From Escherichia coli (GTDB taxonomy: Bacteria > Pseudomonadota > Gammaproteobacteria > Enterobacterales > Enterobacteriaceae): a DNA stretch of 64,000 bases. Both the position numbers and the translations under genes were made by a program. The notes beneath the pieces were generated by a model, which saw only the letters and a program-made list of their open reading frames with translations, was not told the origin of the DNA and did no database searches. The DNA is taken from the NCBI RefSeq assembly GCF_041886205.1, contig NZ_CP169029.1; one strand, written 5' to 3'. This document shows, piece by piece, positions 1,862-39,033 of the stretch. How positions within the stretch are numbered: the stretch's first letter is position 1; each line of letters begins with the position of its first letter.

Positions 1862-4174
1862 ATGCCTCGCTTGTTAACCAAACGCGGCTGCTGGATAACG
1901 CTGGCAGCTGCGCCATTTCTCCTTTTTCTTGCAGCGTGGGGAGCAGATAAACTCTGGCCTCTACCGCTGCATGAAGTCAATCCCGCACGAGTGGTCGTGG
2001 CGCAGGATGGTACGCCGCTCTGGCGCTTCGCCGATGCTGACGGCATCTGGCGTTATCCGGTAACAATCGAAGATGTTTCTCCACGTTACCTTGAAGCGCT
2101 GATCAATTATGAAGATCGCTGGTTCTGGAAGCATCCGGGGGTGAATCCATTCTCGGTGGCGCGCGCAGCATGGCAAGATCTCACTTCGGGACGGGTTATT
2201 TCCGGTGGCAGCACGCTCACTATGCAGGTTGCTCGTCTGCTTGATCCTCACCCCAAAACATTTGGCGGCAAAATTCGCCAGCTCTGGCGCGCGTTACAAC
2301 TGGAATGGCATCTGTCTAAGCGTGAAATTCTGACCTTGTATCTTAACCGCGCTCCGTTTGGCGGTACGTTGCAGGGGATCGGTGCGGCAAGTTGGGCTTA
2401 TCTCGGAAAGTCGCCTGCGAATTTAAGCTATTCCGAGGCGGCAATGCTGGCGGTTTTGCCGCAAGCGCCCAGCCGTCTTCGCCCGGATCGTTGGCCGGAG
2501 CGTGCCGAAGCCGCGCGTAATAAAGTGCTCGAACGGATGGCCGTGCAAGGTGTGTGGTCCCGTGAGCAGGTAAAAGAGTCAAGGGAAGAACCCATCTGGC
2601 TGGCACCCCGACAAATGCCGCAACTGGCACCGCTGTTTTCGCGCATGATGCTCGGTAAAAGCAAAAGCGACAAAATCGTTACTACGCTGGATGCCGGTCT
2701 TCAACGACGTCTGGAAGAACTGGCGCAAAACTGGAAAGGGCGGTTGCCACCGCGCAGCTCACTGGCGATGATCGTGGTTGATCATACAGATATGCGTGTT
2801 CGCGGCTGGGTGGGATCGGTTGATCACAACGATGATTCACGCTTTGGTCATGTTGATATGGTCAATGCGATCCGATCGCCAGGATCGGTGCTCAAACCGT
2901 TTGTTTATGGTCTGGCGCTGGATGAAGGCTTGATCCACCCGGCATCACTGCTGCAAGACGTCCCCCGGCGCACCGGTGATTATCGACCAGGTAACTTTGA
3001 TAGCGGTTTTCATGGCCCGATCAGCATGAGCGAGGCGCTGGTGCGCTCGCTGAACTTACCTGCTGTGCAGGTGCTGGAAGCTTATGGACCGAAACGGTTT
3101 GCGGCAAAGTTACGCAATGTTGGATTGCCGTTATATTTGCCCAACGGCGCTGCGCCGAATCTTTCACTCATTCTCGGCGGCGCTGGTGCAAAACTGGAAG
3201 ATATGGCGGCAGCGTATACCGCGTTTGCTCGCCACGGCAAGGCAGGCAAATTGCGCTTACAGCCTGACGATCCGCTGCTTGAACGGCCTTTAATGTCGTC
3301 GGGGGCGGCGTGGATCATTCGCCGGATTATGGCTGATGAAGCGCAACCCTTGCCGGATAGTGCCTTGCCACGCGTCGCCCCACTGGCATGGAAAACGGGC
3401 ACCAGCTATGGCTATCGTGACGCCTGGGCGATTGGGGTTAACGCTCGCTATGTCATTGGGATCTGGACTGGCAGACCTGACGGCACGCCCGTTGTTGGTC
3501 AGTTTGGCTTTGCCAGTGCCGTACCATTGTTGAATCAGGTCAATAATATCTTACTGTCGCGCAGTGCGAATCTGCCGGAAGACCCGCGCCCGAACTCAGT
3601 CACTCGTGGCGTTATCTGCTGGCCGGGCGGACAGTCTTTGCCGGAAGGTGACGGTAACTGTCGCCGCCGCCTGGCAACCTGGCTGCTGGACGGGAGTCAG
3701 CCGCCAACTCTATTACTGCCGGAGCAGGAAGGCATTAATGGCATTCGTTTCCCCATCTGGCTGGATGAAAATGGCAAACGTGTTGCCGCTGATTGCCCGC
3801 AAGCGCGACAAGAAATGATAAATGTCTGGCCGCTACCGCTGGAACCCTGGTTGCCCGCATCAGAACGTCGCGCTGTGCGCTTACCACCGGCCTCGACAAT
3901 TTGCCCGCCATACGGTCACGATGCCCAGCTCCCTCTGCAGCTGACAGGCGTTCGCGATGGCGCGATTATTAAACGTTTACCGGGCGCAGCGGAAGCGACT
4001 TTGCCGTTGCAATCAAGTGGAGGGGCAGGTGAACGCTGGTGGTTTCTGAATGGCGAACCGTTAACTGAACGCGGGCGCAACGTGACCCTGCATTTGACGG
4101 ATAAAGGTGATTATCAATTGCTGGTGATGGATGACGTAGGGCAAATCGCGTCAGTACATTTTTCATTTCAGTGA
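1862..4174 (+). CDS. pbpC: penicillin-binding protein 1C (peptidoglycan glycosyltransferase)
   Basis: 770-aa ORF with an N-terminal membrane anchor and a glycosyltransferase-type N-domain; ATG abuts the yfhM stop (TAAATG). Confidence 0.9.
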   Translation: MPRLLTKRGCWITLAAAPFLLFLAAWGADKLWPLPLHEVNPARVVVAQDGTPLWRFADADGIWRYPVTIEDVSPRYLEALINYEDRWFWKHPGVNPFSVARAAWQDLTSGRVISGGSTLTMQVARLLDPHPKTFGGKIRQLWRALQLEWHLSKREILTLYLNRAPFGGTLQGIGAASWAYLGKSPANLSYSEAAMLAVLPQAPSRLRPDRWPERAEAARNKVLERMAVQGVWSREQVKESREEPIWLAPRQMPQLAPLFSRMMLGKSKSDKIVTTLDAGLQRRLEELAQNWKGRLPPRSSLAMIVVDHTDMRVRGWVGSVDHNDDSRFGHVDMVNAIRSPGSVLKPFVYGLALDEGLIHPASLLQDVPRRTGDYRPGNFDSGFHGPISMSEALVRSLNLPAVQVLEAYGPKRFAAKLRNVGLPLYLPNGAAPNLSLILGGAGAKLEDMAAAYTAFARHGKAGKLRLQPDDPLLERPLMSSGAAWIIRRIMADEAQPLPDSALPRVAPLAWKTGTSYGYRDAWAIGVNARYVIGIWTGRPDGTPVVGQFGFASAVPLLNQVNNILLSRSANLPEDPRPNSVTRGVICWPGGQSLPEGDGNCRRRLATWLLDGSQPPTLLLPEQEGINGIRFPIWLDENGKRVAADCPQARQEMINVWPLPLEPWLPASERRAVRLPPASTICPPYGHDAQLPLQLTGVRDGAIIKRLPGAAEATLPLQSSGGAGERWWFLNGEPLTERGRNVTLHLTDKGDYQLLVMDDVGQIASVHFSFQ

Positions 4175-4268
4175 AATATACAAAATATTTATTAATCTAA
4201 TTATGGTATTTATATTTGGAATGCATTAATAATTTAATAATCTCACGTTTTTTTAAACGACTAATTAT

Positions 4269-4282
4269 TTGATTGTTATCAG
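4269..4282. promoter_or_regulatory. FNR-like box (TTGATtgttATCAg, 9/10 match to TTGAT-N4-ATCAA) upstream of the DmsA-like gene
   Basis: Read directly in the AT-rich 160-bp leader; centre lies about 62 bp upstream of the ATG at 4338. Confidence 0.4.
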
Positions 4283-4337
4283 CATTGTTCTCGAATAAAT
4301 ACGTGAATATTTATTTTTTCATTTTCGGGAACGCAAG

Positions 4338-6719
4338 ATGGATACGCCAGACGAAAAGGAACGCATTACATTTCCGCAAGTATCACGACGTAGTTTTTTA
4401 CAAGCGACTTCCGCGCTTATCACTTTGCCTTTTATTTCTTCTGCCGCAAAGGCGCAATCTTCAGATGCGTCGCCAGAAGTTACAGCTCCGGTGGCTGATA
4501 AAGTCGTGCCCACCTGTAGCACATTTGACTGTGGTGGTAAGTGCGATATTCGGGCGCATATGCGCGACGGTGTGGTGACGCAAATTACCACGCTTCCCGA
4601 TAACGAACTGGATCCACAAATGCCGATTATGCGCGCCTGTGTTCGTGGTCGCGGCTATCGTAAATTTGTTTATCATCCAGACCGCCTGAAATATCCGATG
4701 AAACGGGTCGGTAAACGGGGCGAGGGTAAATTTGAGCGTATTTCATGGGATGAGGCGACGACCTTAATTGCCGATAACCTGAAAAGGATCACGCAACAAT
4801 ATGGCCCGGCTTCACGTTATGTCCATGTCGGGACGGCTGTTTCTGGTGGAACATTTTCTGGTGATGCGATGGCACGTCGGCTGTTAAATTTAACCGGTGG
4901 TTATCTTGAATATTATCACTCAGTTAGTCTGGGTAATACTGCGGCCGCAACGCCTTACACGTATGGCGTGGCGGCCAGCGGTAACTCGATGGACACTCTT
5001 CTGGATACCAAACTGGTGATCCTCTGGGGGCATAACCCAACGGAAACCATCTTCGGTCACACCAATTACTTTTTTCAAAAAATGAAGCAAAACGGTACGC
5101 GTTTTATCGTGGTGGATCCGCGTTATTCCGACACTGTATCTTCGCTTGCCGATCAGTGGATCCCGCTGCTGCCGACCACGGACAATGCGTTGATGGACGC
5201 GATGATGTACGTGATTATCAGCGAAAATCTCCACGATAAGCAGTTTATCGAAACTTACACGCTCGGTTTTGATGAAGATTCCATGCCTGAGGGCGTACCG
5301 GCGAACGAGTCGCTGTATGCCTACCTGTTCGGCGCGAAAGATGGCGTGCGCAAAACGCCGGAATGGGCAGAAAAAATTACCCACGTTCCGGCACAAACTA
5401 TTCGTCAACTGGCACGCGATTACGCCACTACAAAACCTGCGGCGCTGATTCAGGGTTGGGGGCCACAGCGACATATTTGCGGCGAACGTACCGCCCGAGG
5501 TTCAACTTTACTGGCCTCGATTACCGGTAACGTCGGCATCAAAGGTGGCTGGGCGGCAGGTTATGGCGGTAGTTCTAATCGTAAATTCTGCGTTGGACCA
5601 GATATGCCAGAAAATCCGGTACAAGCGAAAATCTCGATTATGAACTGGATGCAGGCGGCGGATGATGCTTCTAAAGTTACGCCGCAAGATGGGCTTAAAG
5701 GTGTCGATAAACTCGACAGTAATATCCGCCTGCTGTTCTCACTGGCAGGTAATTATCTGGCGAACCAGAACCCGGACGTCCACCAGGCCGCGAAGCTCCT
5801 TGAAGACGAATCTAAAATAGAATTCATCGTACTCAGCGATCTGTTCATGACTCCGAGCGCGAAATATGCCGATGTGTTGCTGCCGGAAACCAGCTTTATG
5901 GAACGCTGGAATATCGGCGAAACATGGGGAACAGCGAGCTATCTTATTCTGTCAGAAAAACTGATTGAGCCGGAGTTTGAACGTCGCACGGATTATGACT
6001 GGTTGCGTGACGTGGCGAAAAAACTGGGTGTCGAAGCCGAGTTCAGTCAGGGACGTGATGAGAAGCAATGGATTGAGCATATCTGGGAGCAAACTCGTCT
6101 GGCGATGCCGGATGAAAATTTGCCGGACTTCGCGACCCTGCAAAAAACACGTCGCCATCTTTTCAAAAGTGCGCCGCACATCGCTTTCGAAGCAAATATT
6201 CGCGATCCGCAGAATAATCCTTTCCCGACGCCTTCCGGCAAAATTGAGATCTTCTCTAAGCGTCTTTTTGATATGCAAGATCCAGAAATTCCCGCGCTTT
6301 CGCACTATGTCCCTGCCTTTGAAGGGCCAGAAGATAAACTGACGGCGAAATACCCGTTGCAGCTCATCACCTGGAAAGGGAAAAACCGTGCTAATTCCAC
6401 CCAGTATGCTAACCCATGGCTGCAAGAAGTTCAGACGCAAAAACTCTGGCTGAATCCGCAAGATGCAAAACAGCGCGGGATTAGCGAAGGAGATAGCGTA
6501 AAAATTTATAACGATCGTGGTGTGAGCATTATCCCGGTGGAAATAACCCCCCGTATCATCCCTGGCGTAGTTGCTATGCAGGCGGGGGCATGGTGGCAAC
6601 CGGATGCACAAGGTATCGATCGCGGAGGCTGTGCCAATGTACTGAGTTCGACCCGCATTACGGCGCTGGCGAAAGGGAATTCGCATCAAACAATGCTGGT
6701 GGAGGTTGAGAAAGCATGA
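4338..6719 (+). CDS. Tat-exported molybdopterin (bis-MGD) oxidoreductase catalytic subunit, DMSO reductase (DmsA) family
   Basis: 793 aa; twin-arginine signal SRRSFLQATSA followed by an AxA-type cleavage region; N-terminal Cys cluster C-x4-C-x3-C...C; length and architecture match DmsA/YnfE-type enzymes; stop overlaps the next ATG. Confidence 0.85.
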   Translation: MDTPDEKERITFPQVSRRSFLQATSALITLPFISSAAKAQSSDASPEVTAPVADKVVPTCSTFDCGGKCDIRAHMRDGVVTQITTLPDNELDPQMPIMRACVRGRGYRKFVYHPDRLKYPMKRVGKRGEGKFERISWDEATTLIADNLKRITQQYGPASRYVHVGTAVSGGTFSGDAMARRLLNLTGGYLEYYHSVSLGNTAAATPYTYGVAASGNSMDTLLDTKLVILWGHNPTETIFGHTNYFFQKMKQNGTRFIVVDPRYSDTVSSLADQWIPLLPTTDNALMDAMMYVIISENLHDKQFIETYTLGFDEDSMPEGVPANESLYAYLFGAKDGVRKTPEWAEKITHVPAQTIRQLARDYATTKPAALIQGWGPQRHICGERTARGSTLLASITGNVGIKGGWAAGYGGSSNRKFCVGPDMPENPVQAKISIMNWMQAADDASKVTPQDGLKGVDKLDSNIRLLFSLAGNYLANQNPDVHQAAKLLEDESKIEFIVLSDLFMTPSAKYADVLLPETSFMERWNIGETWGTASYLILSEKLIEPEFERRTDYDWLRDVAKKLGVEAEFSQGRDEKQWIEHIWEQTRLAMPDENLPDFATLQKTRRHLFKSAPHIAFEANIRDPQNNPFPTPSGKIEIFSKRLFDMQDPEIPALSHYVPAFEGPEDKLTAKYPLQLITWKGKNRANSTQYANPWLQEVQTQKLWLNPQDAKQRGISEGDSVKIYNDRGVSIIPVEITPRIIPGVVAMQAGAWWQPDAQGIDRGGCANVLSSTRITALAKGNSHQTMLVEVEKA

Positions 6720-7345
6720 GCCAATTTAAAGAATTTGCATCTGTCAGCGACAAACAATTAGGGTTCTTCATTGACTCTTCGCGTTGTTCTGGCTGTAAAG
6801 CGTGTCAGGTGGCCTGTAAAGACAAAAATAACCTTGAGGTTGGGCGACGTTTTCGCCGCGTGTATGAAGTGAACGGCGGTGGCTTCATCGCCACTGGAGA
6901 GGGCGGTGTGAGTCATAATGTCTTTGCTTATACCCTTTCTATTTCCTGTAACCATTGCGCGGATCCGATCTGTATCAAAAATTGCCCGACGATGGCGATG
7001 CATAAGCGTCCCGGAGACGGTATTGTGCGCGTGAATACTGATAAGTGCGTCGGTTGCGGTTACTGCGCCTGGTCCTGTCCTTACGGCGCACCGCAAATGA
7101 ATGAGCAGACCGGGCAGATGTCGAAATGCGATTTCTGTATTGATCTGCAAGCTAAAGGAGAACAACCCATTTGCGTGGCAACGTGCCCGTTGGGGGCGAT
7201 TAAGTTCGGCCCTATTGATGAGTTGCGTGAAAAGTATGGCGATGTCAGTGATGTGAAAGGTTTACCTGATTCGTCGATTACGCAGCCAAATCTGGTGATT
7301 AAACCGCATCAGGGCGCGGAAAAGGAGGCGTCACATCATGCATGA
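6716..7345 (+). CDS. 4Fe-4S electron-transfer subunit, DmsB-like
   Basis: 209 aa with four ferredoxin-type Cys clusters (e.g. CSGCKACQVAC, CNHCADPICIKNCP, CVGCGYCAWSCP, CDFCIDL...CVATCP); translationally coupled to neighbours. Confidence 0.85.
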   Translation: MSQFKEFASVSDKQLGFFIDSSRCSGCKACQVACKDKNNLEVGRRFRRVYEVNGGGFIATGEGGVSHNVFAYTLSISCNHCADPICIKNCPTMAMHKRPGDGIVRVNTDKCVGCGYCAWSCPYGAPQMNEQTGQMSKCDFCIDLQAKGEQPICVATCPLGAIKFGPIDELREKYGDVSDVKGLPDSSITQPNLVIKPHQGAEKEASHHA

Positions 7346-8159
7346 ATTACCGTTAATGGCTTTTACGCTGTTGTTACAGGCATCGGTCGGTATGACCTTG
7401 TGGCTGGCGTTTCTTCATCGTCATATTTTAATCACCTCCAGCGCCCGCCCGGTTATGCGGCCGCCATTACTGTTGGCTTTTTTGGCAGGTGCCGTAGGGT
7501 TACTGATTTCTACCTTACATCTGGGTTATCCACTTAATGCGATGCATGCGCTAAGCCACTTTTCCAGTTCATGGCTGAGTCGGGAAATTATCTTTGGTGC
7601 GCTGTATCTGGCGCTATTGGGTTTATCCACATTACTGGTCATGTTACGCAAAGGCGGCTGGCAACTCCTGCTTATGCTAGCGGCAGTGGTCGGGATTGTT
7701 GATGTTTTCTGCATGGCGCAAGTTTACATCCATACGTCGATTATCACCTGGCAGCATTACAACACGCTGATTATGTTCTTAGGTACAGTGGGAATTCTCG
7801 GTTCAGCGCTGGTAGCAGTGTTTCGTATTAGCGGAATTTTGCCGCAGATTGATGCCCTGCGTAATGGATGCGTGTTGGTGATCGCTTTCCTGGTTCTGTT
7901 GCGTTTGTTGGTTCAGCCGTTGTGGATAGGGGATTTAACGGCAAATGCGATGCAGATAGCCACATTGCCACATGCGCCATTAGCGATGCTGGGACAGTTA
8001 AAACCCATACTGACACTAAGCTGGGGAATTTCCGTCATTGGGATGATGTTCTTTGCTGTCGGTGGTTGTAAAAAGAATATCCCGGCGGCGTTATTCGGTA
8101 GCGTAATGCTAGTGGGGAGTGAAGTTATGCTGCGTTTTGTCTTTTTTAGTATCAGCTAA
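7338..8159 (+). CDS. integral membrane anchor subunit, DmsC-like
   Basis: 273 aa, highly hydrophobic with about 8 predicted transmembrane segments; position after the A and B homologues. Confidence 0.7.
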   Translation: MHELPLMAFTLLLQASVGMTLWLAFLHRHILITSSARPVMRPPLLLAFLAGAVGLLISTLHLGYPLNAMHALSHFSSSWLSREIIFGALYLALLGLSTLLVMLRKGGWQLLLMLAAVVGIVDVFCMAQVYIHTSIITWQHYNTLIMFLGTVGILGSALVAVFRISGILPQIDALRNGCVLVIAFLVLLRLLVQPLWIGDLTANAMQIATLPHAPLAMLGQLKPILTLSWGISVIGMMFFAVGGCKKNIPAALFGSVMLVGSEVMLRFVFFSIS

Positions 8160-9013
8160 TGTTAAGTCATAACATAACGATTGGCGCGGAATGCGCGCGC
8201 CAACGCTTTCGTTTTGCAACATGTCATGCCTGTGTCGAGGCTTGCCCGGCACAGGCGCTAACGCTGACAGAAGAGGGCGTAGCGGTCGACGCGGAACAAT
8301 GTATTGAGTGTGCGGTTTGCCAGTTTATTTGCCCGCAAGAGGCTATTCGTGGCGTTAATTCCCCTTTACGTTATTTTCGCAATCACACCCTGGTCGCACC
8401 TTTCACCACTATTGCGCCGACGCTGGAAGAACTTTTGCTATGGCATAAAGAGCAGGGGATCACAGCGATCGCGATTGATCTGAGTCAGGCGAAGGCATGG
8501 GAGCGCGCATTATTGCTGTTAAACGAACGCTTACGGCAATATGGCGAGGAAGGCTGGTCTGTGGTATCTCCACATACCAGTGAGGTGAATGTTTCCCGGC
8601 GTCGTTTGTTCCATGTGCAGCGTGCGGATGTTCAGATGACACAAATACAGCCAGGATTACGTCGGTTACATTATTTTTGGCCCCAGATTAGTGATGCTCG
8701 CCCGATGATGGATCCTCAAAAGTGTCAGCTTTGCGGTGCATGCTGGCGGGCCTGCGGGCAACAGGTCTTTTCGCTTAACGAAGGCCATTTACAAATCAAT
8801 GATGCCTTGTGTACCGGATGCCAAAATTGTATTGCTGTTTGTTTTCATCAGGCAATGACCGTTGAATTGACGATTCTACCGGCAAAAATTGTGAATCTTC
8901 ATGCTAATCGCAAAGTCTGTAAAACCTGTCAAAAATCCTTTCTTACTTTTCAGCAAAATGCGCAAAATTGTCTTTATTGCCAACGTCATCGCTATGGGAT
9001 GAGAGCATCATAA
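8159..9013 (+). CDS. polyferredoxin-like protein (four 4Fe-4S-type Cys motifs plus C-terminal CxxC-x14-CxxC)
   Basis: 284 aa; motifs CHACVEACP, CIECAVCQFICP, CQLCGACWRAC, CTGCQNCIAVC and CKTCQ...CLYCQ; start overlaps the previous stop (TAATG). Confidence 0.7.
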   Translation: MLSHNITIGAECARQRFRFATCHACVEACPAQALTLTEEGVAVDAEQCIECAVCQFICPQEAIRGVNSPLRYFRNHTLVAPFTTIAPTLEELLLWHKEQGITAIAIDLSQAKAWERALLLLNERLRQYGEEGWSVVSPHTSEVNVSRRRLFHVQRADVQMTQIQPGLRRLHYFWPQISDARPMMDPQKCQLCGACWRACGQQVFSLNEGHLQINDALCTGCQNCIAVCFHQAMTVELTILPAKIVNLHANRKVCKTCQKSFLTFQQNAQNCLYCQRHRYGMRAS

Positions 9014-9153
9014 AAGTCGAGTTGTTGCTAAAACTCATTTTATTTTAAAAAAATGTTACCTTCATCAATAGTCAACGGCCCTGTTGCTCATTATAATCCG
9101 CGCCATCTCGTACGCTGGTACAGACAACAACAGAATAATTTACAGAGGTAAAA

Positions 9154-9585
9154 ATGGCTATTGAACGTACTTTTTCCATCATCAAACCGAACGCGGTAGC
9201 AAAAAACGTCATTGGTAATATCTTTGCGCGCTTTGAAGCTGCGGGGTTCAAAATTGTCGGCACCAAAATGCTGCACCTGACCGTTGAACAGGCACGTGGC
9301 TTTTATGCTGAACACGATGGAAAACCGTTCTTTGATGGTCTGGTTGAATTCATGACCTCTGGCCCGATCGTGGTTTCCGTGCTGGAAGGTGAAAACGCCG
9401 TTCAGCGTCACCGCGATCTGCTGGGCGCGACCAATCCGGCAAACGCACTGGCCGGTACTCTGCGCGCTGATTACGCTGACAGCCTGACCGAAAACGGTAC
9501 CCACGGTTCTGACTCCGTCGAATCTGCCGCTCGCGAAATCGCTTATTTCTTCGGCGAAGGCGAAGTGTGCCCGCGCACCCGTTAA
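9154..9585 (+). CDS. ndk: nucleoside diphosphate kinase
   Basis: 143 aa, [15 protein letters not shown]..., with the NDK active-site His region (NGTHGSDS). Confidence 0.95.
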
Positions 9586-36648: not shown

Positions 36649-36662
36649 TTGATATATATCAA
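36649..36662. promoter_or_regulatory. perfect FNR box TTGAT-atat-ATCAA upstream of pdeF (yfgF)
   Basis: Exact match to the FNR consensus, read directly; about 130 bp upstream of the pdeF ATG. pdeF is reported to be anaerobically (FNR) induced. Confidence 0.6.
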
Positions 36663-36789
36663 TTGGAACTTTCATATGACACTTAGAATCAATGCTCTCT
36701 ATAGTGATGAATAATCATCATTCGAAGTCAGGTGGGATGCCTGTCTGAATACACCTCCTTCAGGATGTGGGGGATTCTGCTGAGCATCT

Positions 36790-39033
36790 ATGAAACTGAA
36801 TGCAACTTATATAAAAATACGTGATAAATGGTGGGGGCTTCCGCTGTTCCTGCCTTCTTTAATCTTGCCCATTTTCGCTCACATTAATACTTTTGCGCAT
36901 ATTTCTTCCGGTGAGGTTTTTCTCTTTTATCTGCCTTTGGCACTGATGATCAGCATGATGATGTTTTTCAGCTGGGCGGCATTGCCAGGGATCGCCTTAG
37001 GGATTTTTGTCCGCAAATATGCAGAGCTTGGTTTTTACGAAACGCTCTCATTAACGGCTAATTTTATTATCATTATCATTCTCTGTTGGGGTGGTTACAG
37101 GGTCTTTACTCCCCGGCGTAACAACGTTTCACATGGTGATACCCGTTTAATTTCCCAGCGTATATTCTGGCAGATTGTGTTTCCTGCAACGCTGTTTCTG
37201 ATACTTTTTCAGTTTGCTGCGTTTGTAGGATTACTGGCGAGCAGAGAAAATCTGGTCGGCGTCATGCCTTTTAACCTCGGGACCTTAATCAATTATCAGG
37301 CCTTACTGGTGGGCAATCTGATTGGTGTCCCGCTGTGCTACTTCATCATTCGTGTAGTGCGAAATCCATTTTATTTACGTAGCTATTATTCGCAATTAAA
37401 ACAGCAGGTTGATGTCAAAGTCACAAAAAAAGAGTTCGCACTCTGGCTACTGGCACTAGGTGCTTTACTGTTGCTGTTATGCATGCCGTTAAATGAAAAA
37501 AGCACAATTTTTAGCACCAATTATACCTTGTCATTATTGCTGCCCCTGATGATGTGGGGAGCGATGCGCTATGGGTATAAGTTGATTTCGCTGCTCTGGG
37601 CGGTCGTGCTGATGATCAGCATCCACAGCTATCAAAATTACATTCCCATTTATCCTGGCTATACCACTCAGCTGACCATAACCTCCTCCAGTTATCTGGT
37701 ATTCTCTTTTATTGTCAATTATATGGCTGTACTGGCAACCCGTCAGCGAGCGGTAGTCAGACGCATTCAGCGACTTGCGTATGTGGACCCGGTGGTTCAT
37801 CTGCCAAATGTTCGCGCCCTGAATCGCGCGTTGCGTGATGCCCCCTGGTCTGCGCTTTGTTATTTACGCATCCCTGGCATGGAAATGCTGGTTAAAAACT
37901 ATGGCATCATGCTGCGGATTCAATACAAGCAAAAACTTTCTCACTGGCTGTCACCCTTGCTGGAACCGGGTGAAGATGTTTATCAGCTTTCGGGTAACGA
38001 TCTCGCGCTGCGACTGAATACAGAATCGCACCAGGAGCGCATTGCCGCACTGGATAGCCATCTCAAGCAATTTCGTTTCTTTTGGGATGGCATGCCGATG
38101 CAACCGCAGATTGGCGTCAGTTACTGCTATGTGCGCTCGCCAGTGAATCATATCTACCTGCTGCTGGGAGAGCTAAATACGGTCGCCGAACTTTCCATCG
38201 TGACCAACGCCCCGGAAAATATGCAGCGTCGCGGGGCAATGTATTTGCAACGCGAATTGAAAGATAAAGTCGCGATGATGAATCGGCTACAGCAGGCGCT
38301 GGAACACAACCATTTTTTCCTGATGGCCCAGCCGATTACCGGTATGCGTGGTGATGTTTACCATGAAATTCTTCTGCGCATGAAAGGTGAGAATGATGAA
38401 CTGATCAGCCCCGATAGCTTCTTGCCGGTCGCGCACGAATTTGGTTTATCGTCGAGTATCGACATGTGGGTCATTGAGCATACGCTGCAATTTATGGCTA
38501 AAAACAGAGCGAAGATGCCCGCTCACCGTTTTGCTATTAATCTGTCTCCAACCTCGGTATGTCAGGCGCGTTTTCCTGTTGAAGTCAGTCAACTGCTGGC
38601 TAAATATCAGATTGAAGCGTGGCAACTTATTTTTGAAGTCACCGAAAGTAATGCTCTGACCAATGTTAAGCAGGCGCAAATCACCTTGCAGCATCTTCAG
38701 GAATTAGGCTGCCAGATTGCGATTGATGATTTCGGCACCGGCTACGCCAGCTATGCGCGGCTTAAAAATGTGAATGCCGATCTGCTTAAAATTGACGGCA
38801 GTTTTATCCGCAATATTGTGTCAAATAGTCTGGATTATCAGATTGTGGCGTCGATTTGCCACCTGGCGCGAATGAAGAAAATGCGGGTAGTGGCAGAGTA
38901 CGTTGAAAACGAAGAGATCCGCGAGGCGGTGCTCTCTTTGGGGATCGATTATATGCAGGGTTATCTTATTGGTAAGCCGCAACCGTTAATTGATACGCTG
39001 AATGAAATCGAACCCATTCGCGAAAGTGCCTGA
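36790..39033 (+). CDS. pdeF: cyclic-di-GMP phosphodiesterase PdeF (MASE1 - degenerate GGDEF - EAL)
   Basis: 747 aa; N-terminal polytopic membrane domain; EAL-domain motifs (EVTE, DDFGTGYAS, EYVE) at the C-terminus. Confidence 0.9.
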   Translation: MKLNATYIKIRDKWWGLPLFLPSLILPIFAHINTFAHISSGEVFLFYLPLALMISMMMFFSWAALPGIALGIFVRKYAELGFYETLSLTANFIIIIILCWGGYRVFTPRRNNVSHGDTRLISQRIFWQIVFPATLFLILFQFAAFVGLLASRENLVGVMPFNLGTLINYQALLVGNLIGVPLCYFIIRVVRNPFYLRSYYSQLKQQVDVKVTKKEFALWLLALGALLLLLCMPLNEKSTIFSTNYTLSLLLPLMMWGAMRYGYKLISLLWAVVLMISIHSYQNYIPIYPGYTTQLTITSSSYLVFSFIVNYMAVLATRQRAVVRRIQRLAYVDPVVHLPNVRALNRALRDAPWSALCYLRIPGMEMLVKNYGIMLRIQYKQKLSHWLSPLLEPGEDVYQLSGNDLALRLNTESHQERIAALDSHLKQFRFFWDGMPMQPQIGVSYCYVRSPVNHIYLLLGELNTVAELSIVTNAPENMQRRGAMYLQRELKDKVAMMNRLQQALEHNHFFLMAQPITGMRGDVYHEILLRMKGENDELISPDSFLPVAHEFGLSSSIDMWVIEHTLQFMAKNRAKMPAHRFAINLSPTSVCQARFPVEVSQLLAKYQIEAWQLIFEVTESNALTNVKQAQITLQHLQELGCQIAIDDFGTGYASYARLKNVNADLLKIDGSFIRNIVSNSLDYQIVASICHLARMKKMRVVAEYVENEEIREAVLSLGIDYMQGYLIGKPQPLIDTLNEIEPIRESA

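Follow-up and report, generated by a model that had tools for sequence, protein, structure and literature searches.

What controls the accessory molybdoenzyme operon that some Escherichia coli strains carry between pbpC and ndk, and is the FNR-like sequence in front of it a functional site or an accident of AT-rich DNA? The window, by which we mean the whole stretch of 64,000 nucleotides analysed here, belongs to the E. coli chromosome and contains, in order, a partial yfhM, pbpC (1862-4174), the four-gene operon, ndk (9154-9585), rlmN and rodZ; positions 4100-4500 are identical at 100% in seven complete genomes. An earlier note on this DNA had described a half-perfect FNR box scoring 9/10, about 60 bp before the first start codon of the operon. 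Reading the sequence confirms its coordinates and score. The box TTGATTGTTATCAG departs from TTGATnnnnATCAA only at the last position, where G replaces A; its end and its centre stand 55 nt and 62.5 bp, respectively, ahead of the ATG with which the operon begins (4338). It is very probably a genuine FNR site that would switch on the operon when oxygen is lacking, a view that rests on comparison of orthologous promoters. The region is best explained as a class II FNR promoter serving an accessory DmsABC-like operon, a reading to which we assign a probability of roughly 80%; conservation and geometry are observed directly and FNR dependence is taken from the literature on the Salmonella orthologue, while the transcription start, FNR occupancy and anaerobic induction in E. 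coli are what we infer from them.

The accessory operon and its enzyme

The features discussed here are collected in Table 1. Alignment with the pbpC-ndk spacer of K-12 delimits a variable segment of about 4.9 kb, made up of the last pbpC codons, an AT-rich promoter region and the four-gene operon; at its left end it substitutes its own codons for the last few of pbpC. It was found in 380 of 5426 complete E. coli genomes (~7%), many O157:H7 strains among them. The order pbpC-operon-ndk is common to Escherichia, Salmonella, Enterobacter, Superficieibacter, Huaxiibacter and one Lelliottia, and since Salmonella, Enterobacter and their relatives share it, loss of the segment from most E. coli is as likely as gain. 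The spacer between pbpC and the operon (4175-4337) measures 163 bp and has 22% GC. It holds no intrinsic terminator in E. coli, nor does the corresponding interval in Enterobacter wuhouensis, and an Rfam search of 4000-4600 returned only chance-level matches (E above 1), hence no known riboswitch or leader RNA. For a Moco riboswitch in particular, the predicted leader would be too short.

Table 1. Coordinates of the features of the operon and its promoter region (positions in the window)
Feature	Position	Strand	Basis
Variable segment without counterpart in K-12	4156-9021	+	Alignment against K-12 pbpC-ndk spacer
FNR box TTGATTGTTATCAG	4269-4282	.	9/10 to TTGAT-N4-ATCAA; centre 4275.5
-35 position, GCATTG, no usable -35	4282-4287	+	Sequence; sigma-70 consensus scan
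5' arm GTTCTCGAA of imperfect palindrome, between box and -10	4287-4295	+	RNA fold
Predicted -10 hexamer GAATAT, begins 22 nt after box	4305-4310	+	Conserved nAnAAT block in 29 orthologues
Predicted transcription start, about 4317	4315-4319	+	Inferred from -10 position
3' arm TTCGGGAAC, over Shine-Dalgarno	4324-4332	+	RNA fold, accessibility
Shine-Dalgarno-like GGGAA, 6 nt before ATG 4338	4327-4331	+	Sequence; purine-rich block at same place in orthologues
Catalytic subunit, DmsA/YnfE-family molybdopterin oxidoreductase	4338-6719	+	TIGR02166, 1130 bits vs cut-off 778
Iron-sulfur subunit, DmsB type	6716-7345	+	TIGR02951, 268 bits vs cut-off 214
Membrane anchor subunit, DmsC type	7338-8159	+	PF04976, 83.9 bits; RefSeq annotation
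Fourth gene, two 4Fe-4S dicluster domains	8159-9013	+	Domain search, annotation

The catalytic subunit carries a twin-arginine signal, with the motif SRRSFL near its N-terminus; its Pfam domains agree with a molybdopterin oxidoreductase, and it is the orthologue of Salmonella STM2530. The operon thus has the composition of the DmsABC or YnfEFGH type, that is, an A subunit of the dmsA_ynfE subfamily with a Tat signal and subunits of the DmsB and DmsC types downstream. The scores against the specific models nevertheless fall below all three cut-offs (DmsA 707 vs 1600 bits, YnfF 692 vs 1650, YnfE 669 vs 1675), which rules out DmsA proper as well as YnfE or YnfF proper. The catalytic subunit of the operon, which had been described as Dms-like, is a distinct paralogue within the DmsA family, and the Salmonella counterpart gave no DMSO phenotype. 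The product of the fourth gene is a protein of 284 residues without a close named family.

What is recorded of this enzyme comes from Salmonella. STM2530 showed no DMSO growth phenotype under the conditions tried, and the authors raised lack of expression as one reason; in 2022 the expression conditions of the operon were still described as unknown. A 2025 preprint (PMC12636705) renames the Salmonella operon psr1 and proposes that it encodes a periplasmic sulfate reductase.

Promoter architecture and its conservation

Taken as an isolated match, the box is weak evidence. Sequences with at most one mismatch to the FNR consensus occur three times in the window against 2.5 expected, and 4.1% of 5000 dinucleotide shuffles of the spacer hold a match at least as good (P ~0.04). 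Another 9/10 match, TTGATGAATACCAA at 1710-1723, lies within the yfhM coding sequence and is taken as a chance match.

Orthologous promoters were compared by a scan of one genome per species, which gave 80 loci with close relatives of the catalytic subunit (67-98% identical). The N-terminus was located at each locus and the DNA upstream of it scanned, yielding 76 distinct upstream regions in which a 110-nt interval at the equivalent position was considered. A box with no more than one mismatch was present at that position in 43 of the 76 (29 perfect, 14 with one mismatch), whereas shuffles of the same upstream regions held 0.8 boxes on average and at most 4 in 300 trials; because of this excess a chance origin of the box is rejected. 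The genera that bear it include Salmonella, Enterobacter, Citrobacter, Leclercia, Lelliottia, Pluralibacter and Franconibacter, and also Budvicia, Proteus, Morganella and Photorhabdus. When 29 sequences with mutual identities below 80% were stacked without gaps, the box serving as anchor, the information content came to 1.3-2.0 bits in the ten half-site columns, against less than 0.6 bits in the N4 spacer and both flanks. The same stack reveals a second conserved block, nAnAAT, at box positions 37-42 (A in 22/29, A in 24/29, A in 20/29 and T in 26/29).

This second block is the predicted -10 hexamer, the first base of which lies 29.5 bp from the box centre. With the hexamer at -12 to -7, the box would be centred at about -41.5, which is the geometry of class II FNR promoters and one of the class positions that the earlier note had named as a criterion for its reading; the fixed gap of 22 nt to the conserved -10 is what predicts it. 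Together with this spacing, the repeat of TTGAT-N4-ATCAA type and the weak or absent -35 are the sequence features of the class. A sigma-70 consensus scan of 4050-4450 found no promoter, which is consistent with dependence on an activator. From the start of the box to the start codon there are 66-69 nt in most genera, which would leave a transcribed leader of only about 20 nt. On this prediction the box does not lie in the leader of the operon, as had been supposed, but in its promoter. Around the predicted start the sequence is a conserved run rich in T, in which no purine stands out.

The model that follows from this layout can be stated briefly. When oxygen is absent, a [4Fe-4S] FNR dimer would bind TTGATTGTTATCAG, whose centre precedes the predicted start near 4317 by some 41.5 bp; placed over the -35 position, FNR would recruit sigma-70 RNA polymerase to GAATAT, a weak -10; and the resulting short leader of ~20 nt would carry the ribosome site of the first gene of the four-gene DmsABC-like operon, the counterpart of STM2530-2527.

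Among Escherichia sequences, the window, O157:H7, a urinary isolate and Escherichia sp. E1V33 all have the same box. It scores 8/10 in the cryptic-clade Escherichia MOD1-EC7003 (TTGATTGTTGTCAG) and likewise in a metagenomic relative with an A subunit 93% identical. The Escherichia box is a somewhat decayed version of one that is perfect in most other genera, and the -10 is weaker too. The mismatch of the E. coli box falls on the outermost base of the half-site, the base read by Ser212 of FNR. In E. coli strain 4FM (locus L084, 713-1508) an IS1 element sits directly after the FNR box, flanked by a 9-bp duplication (TCAGCATTG), and parts the box from the -10 and the operon, a natural disruption of the promoter.

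Other regulators were sought by consensus scans of 4140-4345 on both strands. Sites for NarL and ModE, which had been suggested for this region, are absent there: neither a NarL heptamer TACYYMT (or 7-2-7 pair) nor a ModE motif TATAT-N7-TAYAT occurs. The same scans gave no CRP, Fur or high-affinity H-NS motif and, for ArcA, only a string with four mismatches. The minus strand holds an IHF core match (WATCAANNNNTTR, 4262-4274) that shares bases with the left half-site and is a by-product of ATCAA. In K-12 the dmsA promoter is repressed by NarL as well and modulated by ModE, and the lack of both motifs here is one point of difference from it. In Enterobacter species only, a NarL-type heptamer stands ~12 nt upstream of the FNR box (TACTCCT at about 5886-5892 of locus L011 and equivalently in L028, TACTCCA in L008), and E. 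coli has nothing comparable. At eight loci of Proteus species a second FNR-like box, TTGATACAACTTAA, scoring 8/10, lies 105 bp upstream of the perfect one, and the pair may form a tandem arrangement. Fourteen loci in Proteus, Providencia and Morganella hold a more distant copy of the catalytic gene, ~69% identical and without an equivalent box, which is probably a differently regulated paralogue.

Three promoters offer points of comparison. The window itself contains a single perfect FNR box, TTGATATATATCAA at 36649-36662, with TAGAAT beginning 21 nt later (36649-36689 in all); it stands ~130 bp upstream of a 747-codon gene (36790-39033), and its sequence matches the published yfgF (pdeF) promoter, which is assigned to class II of the FNR promoters, its box being at -41.5 and its -10 TAGAAT (PMC3718329). 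We used it as an internal positive control, with a centre-to--10 spacing of 28.5 bp. Both promoters combine a TTGAT-N4-ATCAA box with an nAnAAT-type -10 21-22 nt further on and no -35; yfgF differs in its perfect box, in a long leader of about 90 nt and in the unrelated function of the gene. More generally, activating FNR sites in E. coli K-12 cluster at -40.5 to -42.5, with that of dmsABC at -41.5 (PMC3688515). The P1 promoter of E. coli dmsABC resembles the present one in serving a Tat-exported molybdoenzyme operon of DmsABC type from a single FNR box at about -41.5, over the -35 position (PMC3688515), but here the catalytic subunit is a separate paralogue below the DmsA cut-off and a fourth, ferredoxin-like gene is added.

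The closest comparison is with Salmonella enterica STM2530-2527 (STM14_3103-3100, 'psr1'), an orthologous operon in the same position between pbpC and ndk, with an A subunit ~84-85% identical. Its promoter, taken from the dominant protein cluster (13,070 members), reads TTGATAAATATCAA, 22 nt, GAGAAT, 25 nt, ATG, and so repeats the box, the gap, the -10 and the short leader. The two differ in that Salmonella has a perfect box with GAGAAT where E. coli has a 9/10 box with GAATAT, and the DNA upstream of the box is unrelated. STM14_3103 (= STM2530) is listed among the loci most activated by FNR in the 2025 preprint, which cites Fink 2007 for this and also mentions some aerobic activity (PMC12636705). 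A promoter reported as FNR-activated in Salmonella thus shows the same layout, and the architecture proposed for E. coli matches it. On these grounds, the conserved half-sites, the class II geometry and the Salmonella literature, the proposal that the box is an FNR site for anaerobic activation of a respiratory-type reductase operon appears sound. The PLoS Biology supplements contain no start-site data for the Salmonella orthologue and name the gene only in a SNP table. The S. enterica gene is annotated with 801 residues, from an ATG that overlaps the predicted -10 (GAGAATG; locus L087, 1501-1530), and the conserved start with its ribosome site lies 27 nt further downstream, so that the annotation probably has the wrong start.

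An imperfect palindrome enclosing the predicted -10

The predicted -10 is enclosed by the arms of an imperfect palindrome, the second of which covers the Shine-Dalgarno sequence. The arm GTTCTCGAA is complementary to TTCGGGAAC, and the predicted duplex of upstream sequence and ribosome-site region has an energy of -12.6 kcal/mol (z -2.9 and p 0.013 relative to shuffles of the upstream part). In a set of 34 orthologous promoters the folding z-score averages -2.4, with a significant duplex between upstream DNA and ribosome site in 13; the strongest cases are those Enterobacter species whose pbpC stops only 22 nt ahead of the box. Predicted accessibility of the ribosome site in the window is 0.57 for a transcript from 4317, as against 0.01-0.22 for longer transcripts. 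It is 0.19 with the native upstream part and 0.44 when this part is shuffled (p 0.049), a test that was significant at only 7 of 27 loci, Salmonella not being one of them. Three variants within Escherichia retain the pairing (CTCG/CGGG, CCTG/CGGG and CCTG/CAGG, with a G-U intermediate).

RNAalifold nevertheless found no consensus structure in 16 promoters of the clade with the pbpC context, the register of the arms differing from genus to genus. The two strands fold with similar energies (sense is favoured in 20 of 34), and an RNA element is not separated in this way from a palindrome of the DNA. A canonical terminator was rejected as the identity of the palindrome, there being no intrinsic terminator in E. 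coli or E. wuhouensis.

For Escherichia and the Enterobacter group it is conceivable, though we think it unlikely, that the palindrome hides the ribosome site in read-through from the co-directional pbpC gene and that the reductase would be translated only when FNR has initiated transcription; transcripts from the FNR promoter would lack the upstream arm and be translatable. Fold-back inhibition of read-through transcripts has reportedly been demonstrated by experiment for IS10, by Davis, Simons and Kleckner in 1985. The likeness is that a sequence preceding the native start can pair with the ribosome site, and only transcripts from the element's own promoter would be translatable; the difference is that the present case is a statistical tendency in part of the family, without a consensus structure.

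Alternative readings and biological meaning

Among the other readings of the box, the one with most in its favour, although still improbable, is that E. coli has inherited a true FNR box that is now largely silent, with box and -10 decayed, the spacer coated by H-NS and FNR rarely bound, and the operon expressed only under special conditions or never. Escherichia is indeed the only sampled lineage with boxes of 9/10 or 8/10 and with GAATAT in place of GAGAAT, the AT-richness of the spacer would suit such a coat, and the Salmonella work described above found no conditions in which STM2530 matters for growth on DMSO and itself raised lack of expression. Against it, divergent E. coli lineages, O157:H7 included, all keep an intact box, an intact -10 and intact reading frames, without variation among them. 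Boxes of 9/10 function elsewhere, and that of E. coli dmsA is itself imperfect. The K-12 data cut both ways (PMC3688515): FNR left 124 of its 187 predicted sites empty, most of these being masked by H-NS, IHF or Fis, which speaks for silence, but occupancy did not track the match to consensus, which speaks against it. Partial masking of the site in vivo, for instance by H-NS, may apply to the class II promoter as well and is the main caveat to it, given a spacer of 22% GC.

A different function for the box would be very surprising. It might be a site for repression by FNR, a class I site for a promoter further upstream, or a sequence read by CRP, ArcA or IHF, and the overlapping IHF core match, the many -10-like strings that the AT-rich upstream region offers and the possibility of a start upstream of 4287, should the palindrome be an RNA element, all lend this some colour. 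Yet CRP has no match, the ArcA-like string is poor and the IHF match arises merely from the half-site; in Enterobacter, where the pbpC stop codon precedes the box by just 22 nt, an upstream promoter would have no space; and the feature kept at a fixed distance is the -10 downstream. The orthologue, moreover, is reported as activated by FNR, not repressed (PMC12636705). That the box is a mere coincidence without a regulatory role would fit the unremarkable count in the window and the share of spacer shuffles that do equally well, but a position conserved far beyond expectation, a variable N4 spacer between conserved half-sites and the fixed distance to a conserved -10 make this barely credible.

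As a regulatory mechanism, the class II FNR promoter favoured here is already known and indeed of the textbook kind. Its value lies in providing a testable promoter model, with a box, a -10, a start near 4317 and a short leader, for an accessory operon of ~7% of complete E. coli genomes. If expression is strictly driven by FNR, experiments on the role of the enzyme in the gut would belong under anaerobic conditions, and mutation of this one box would supply a clean regulatory knockout.
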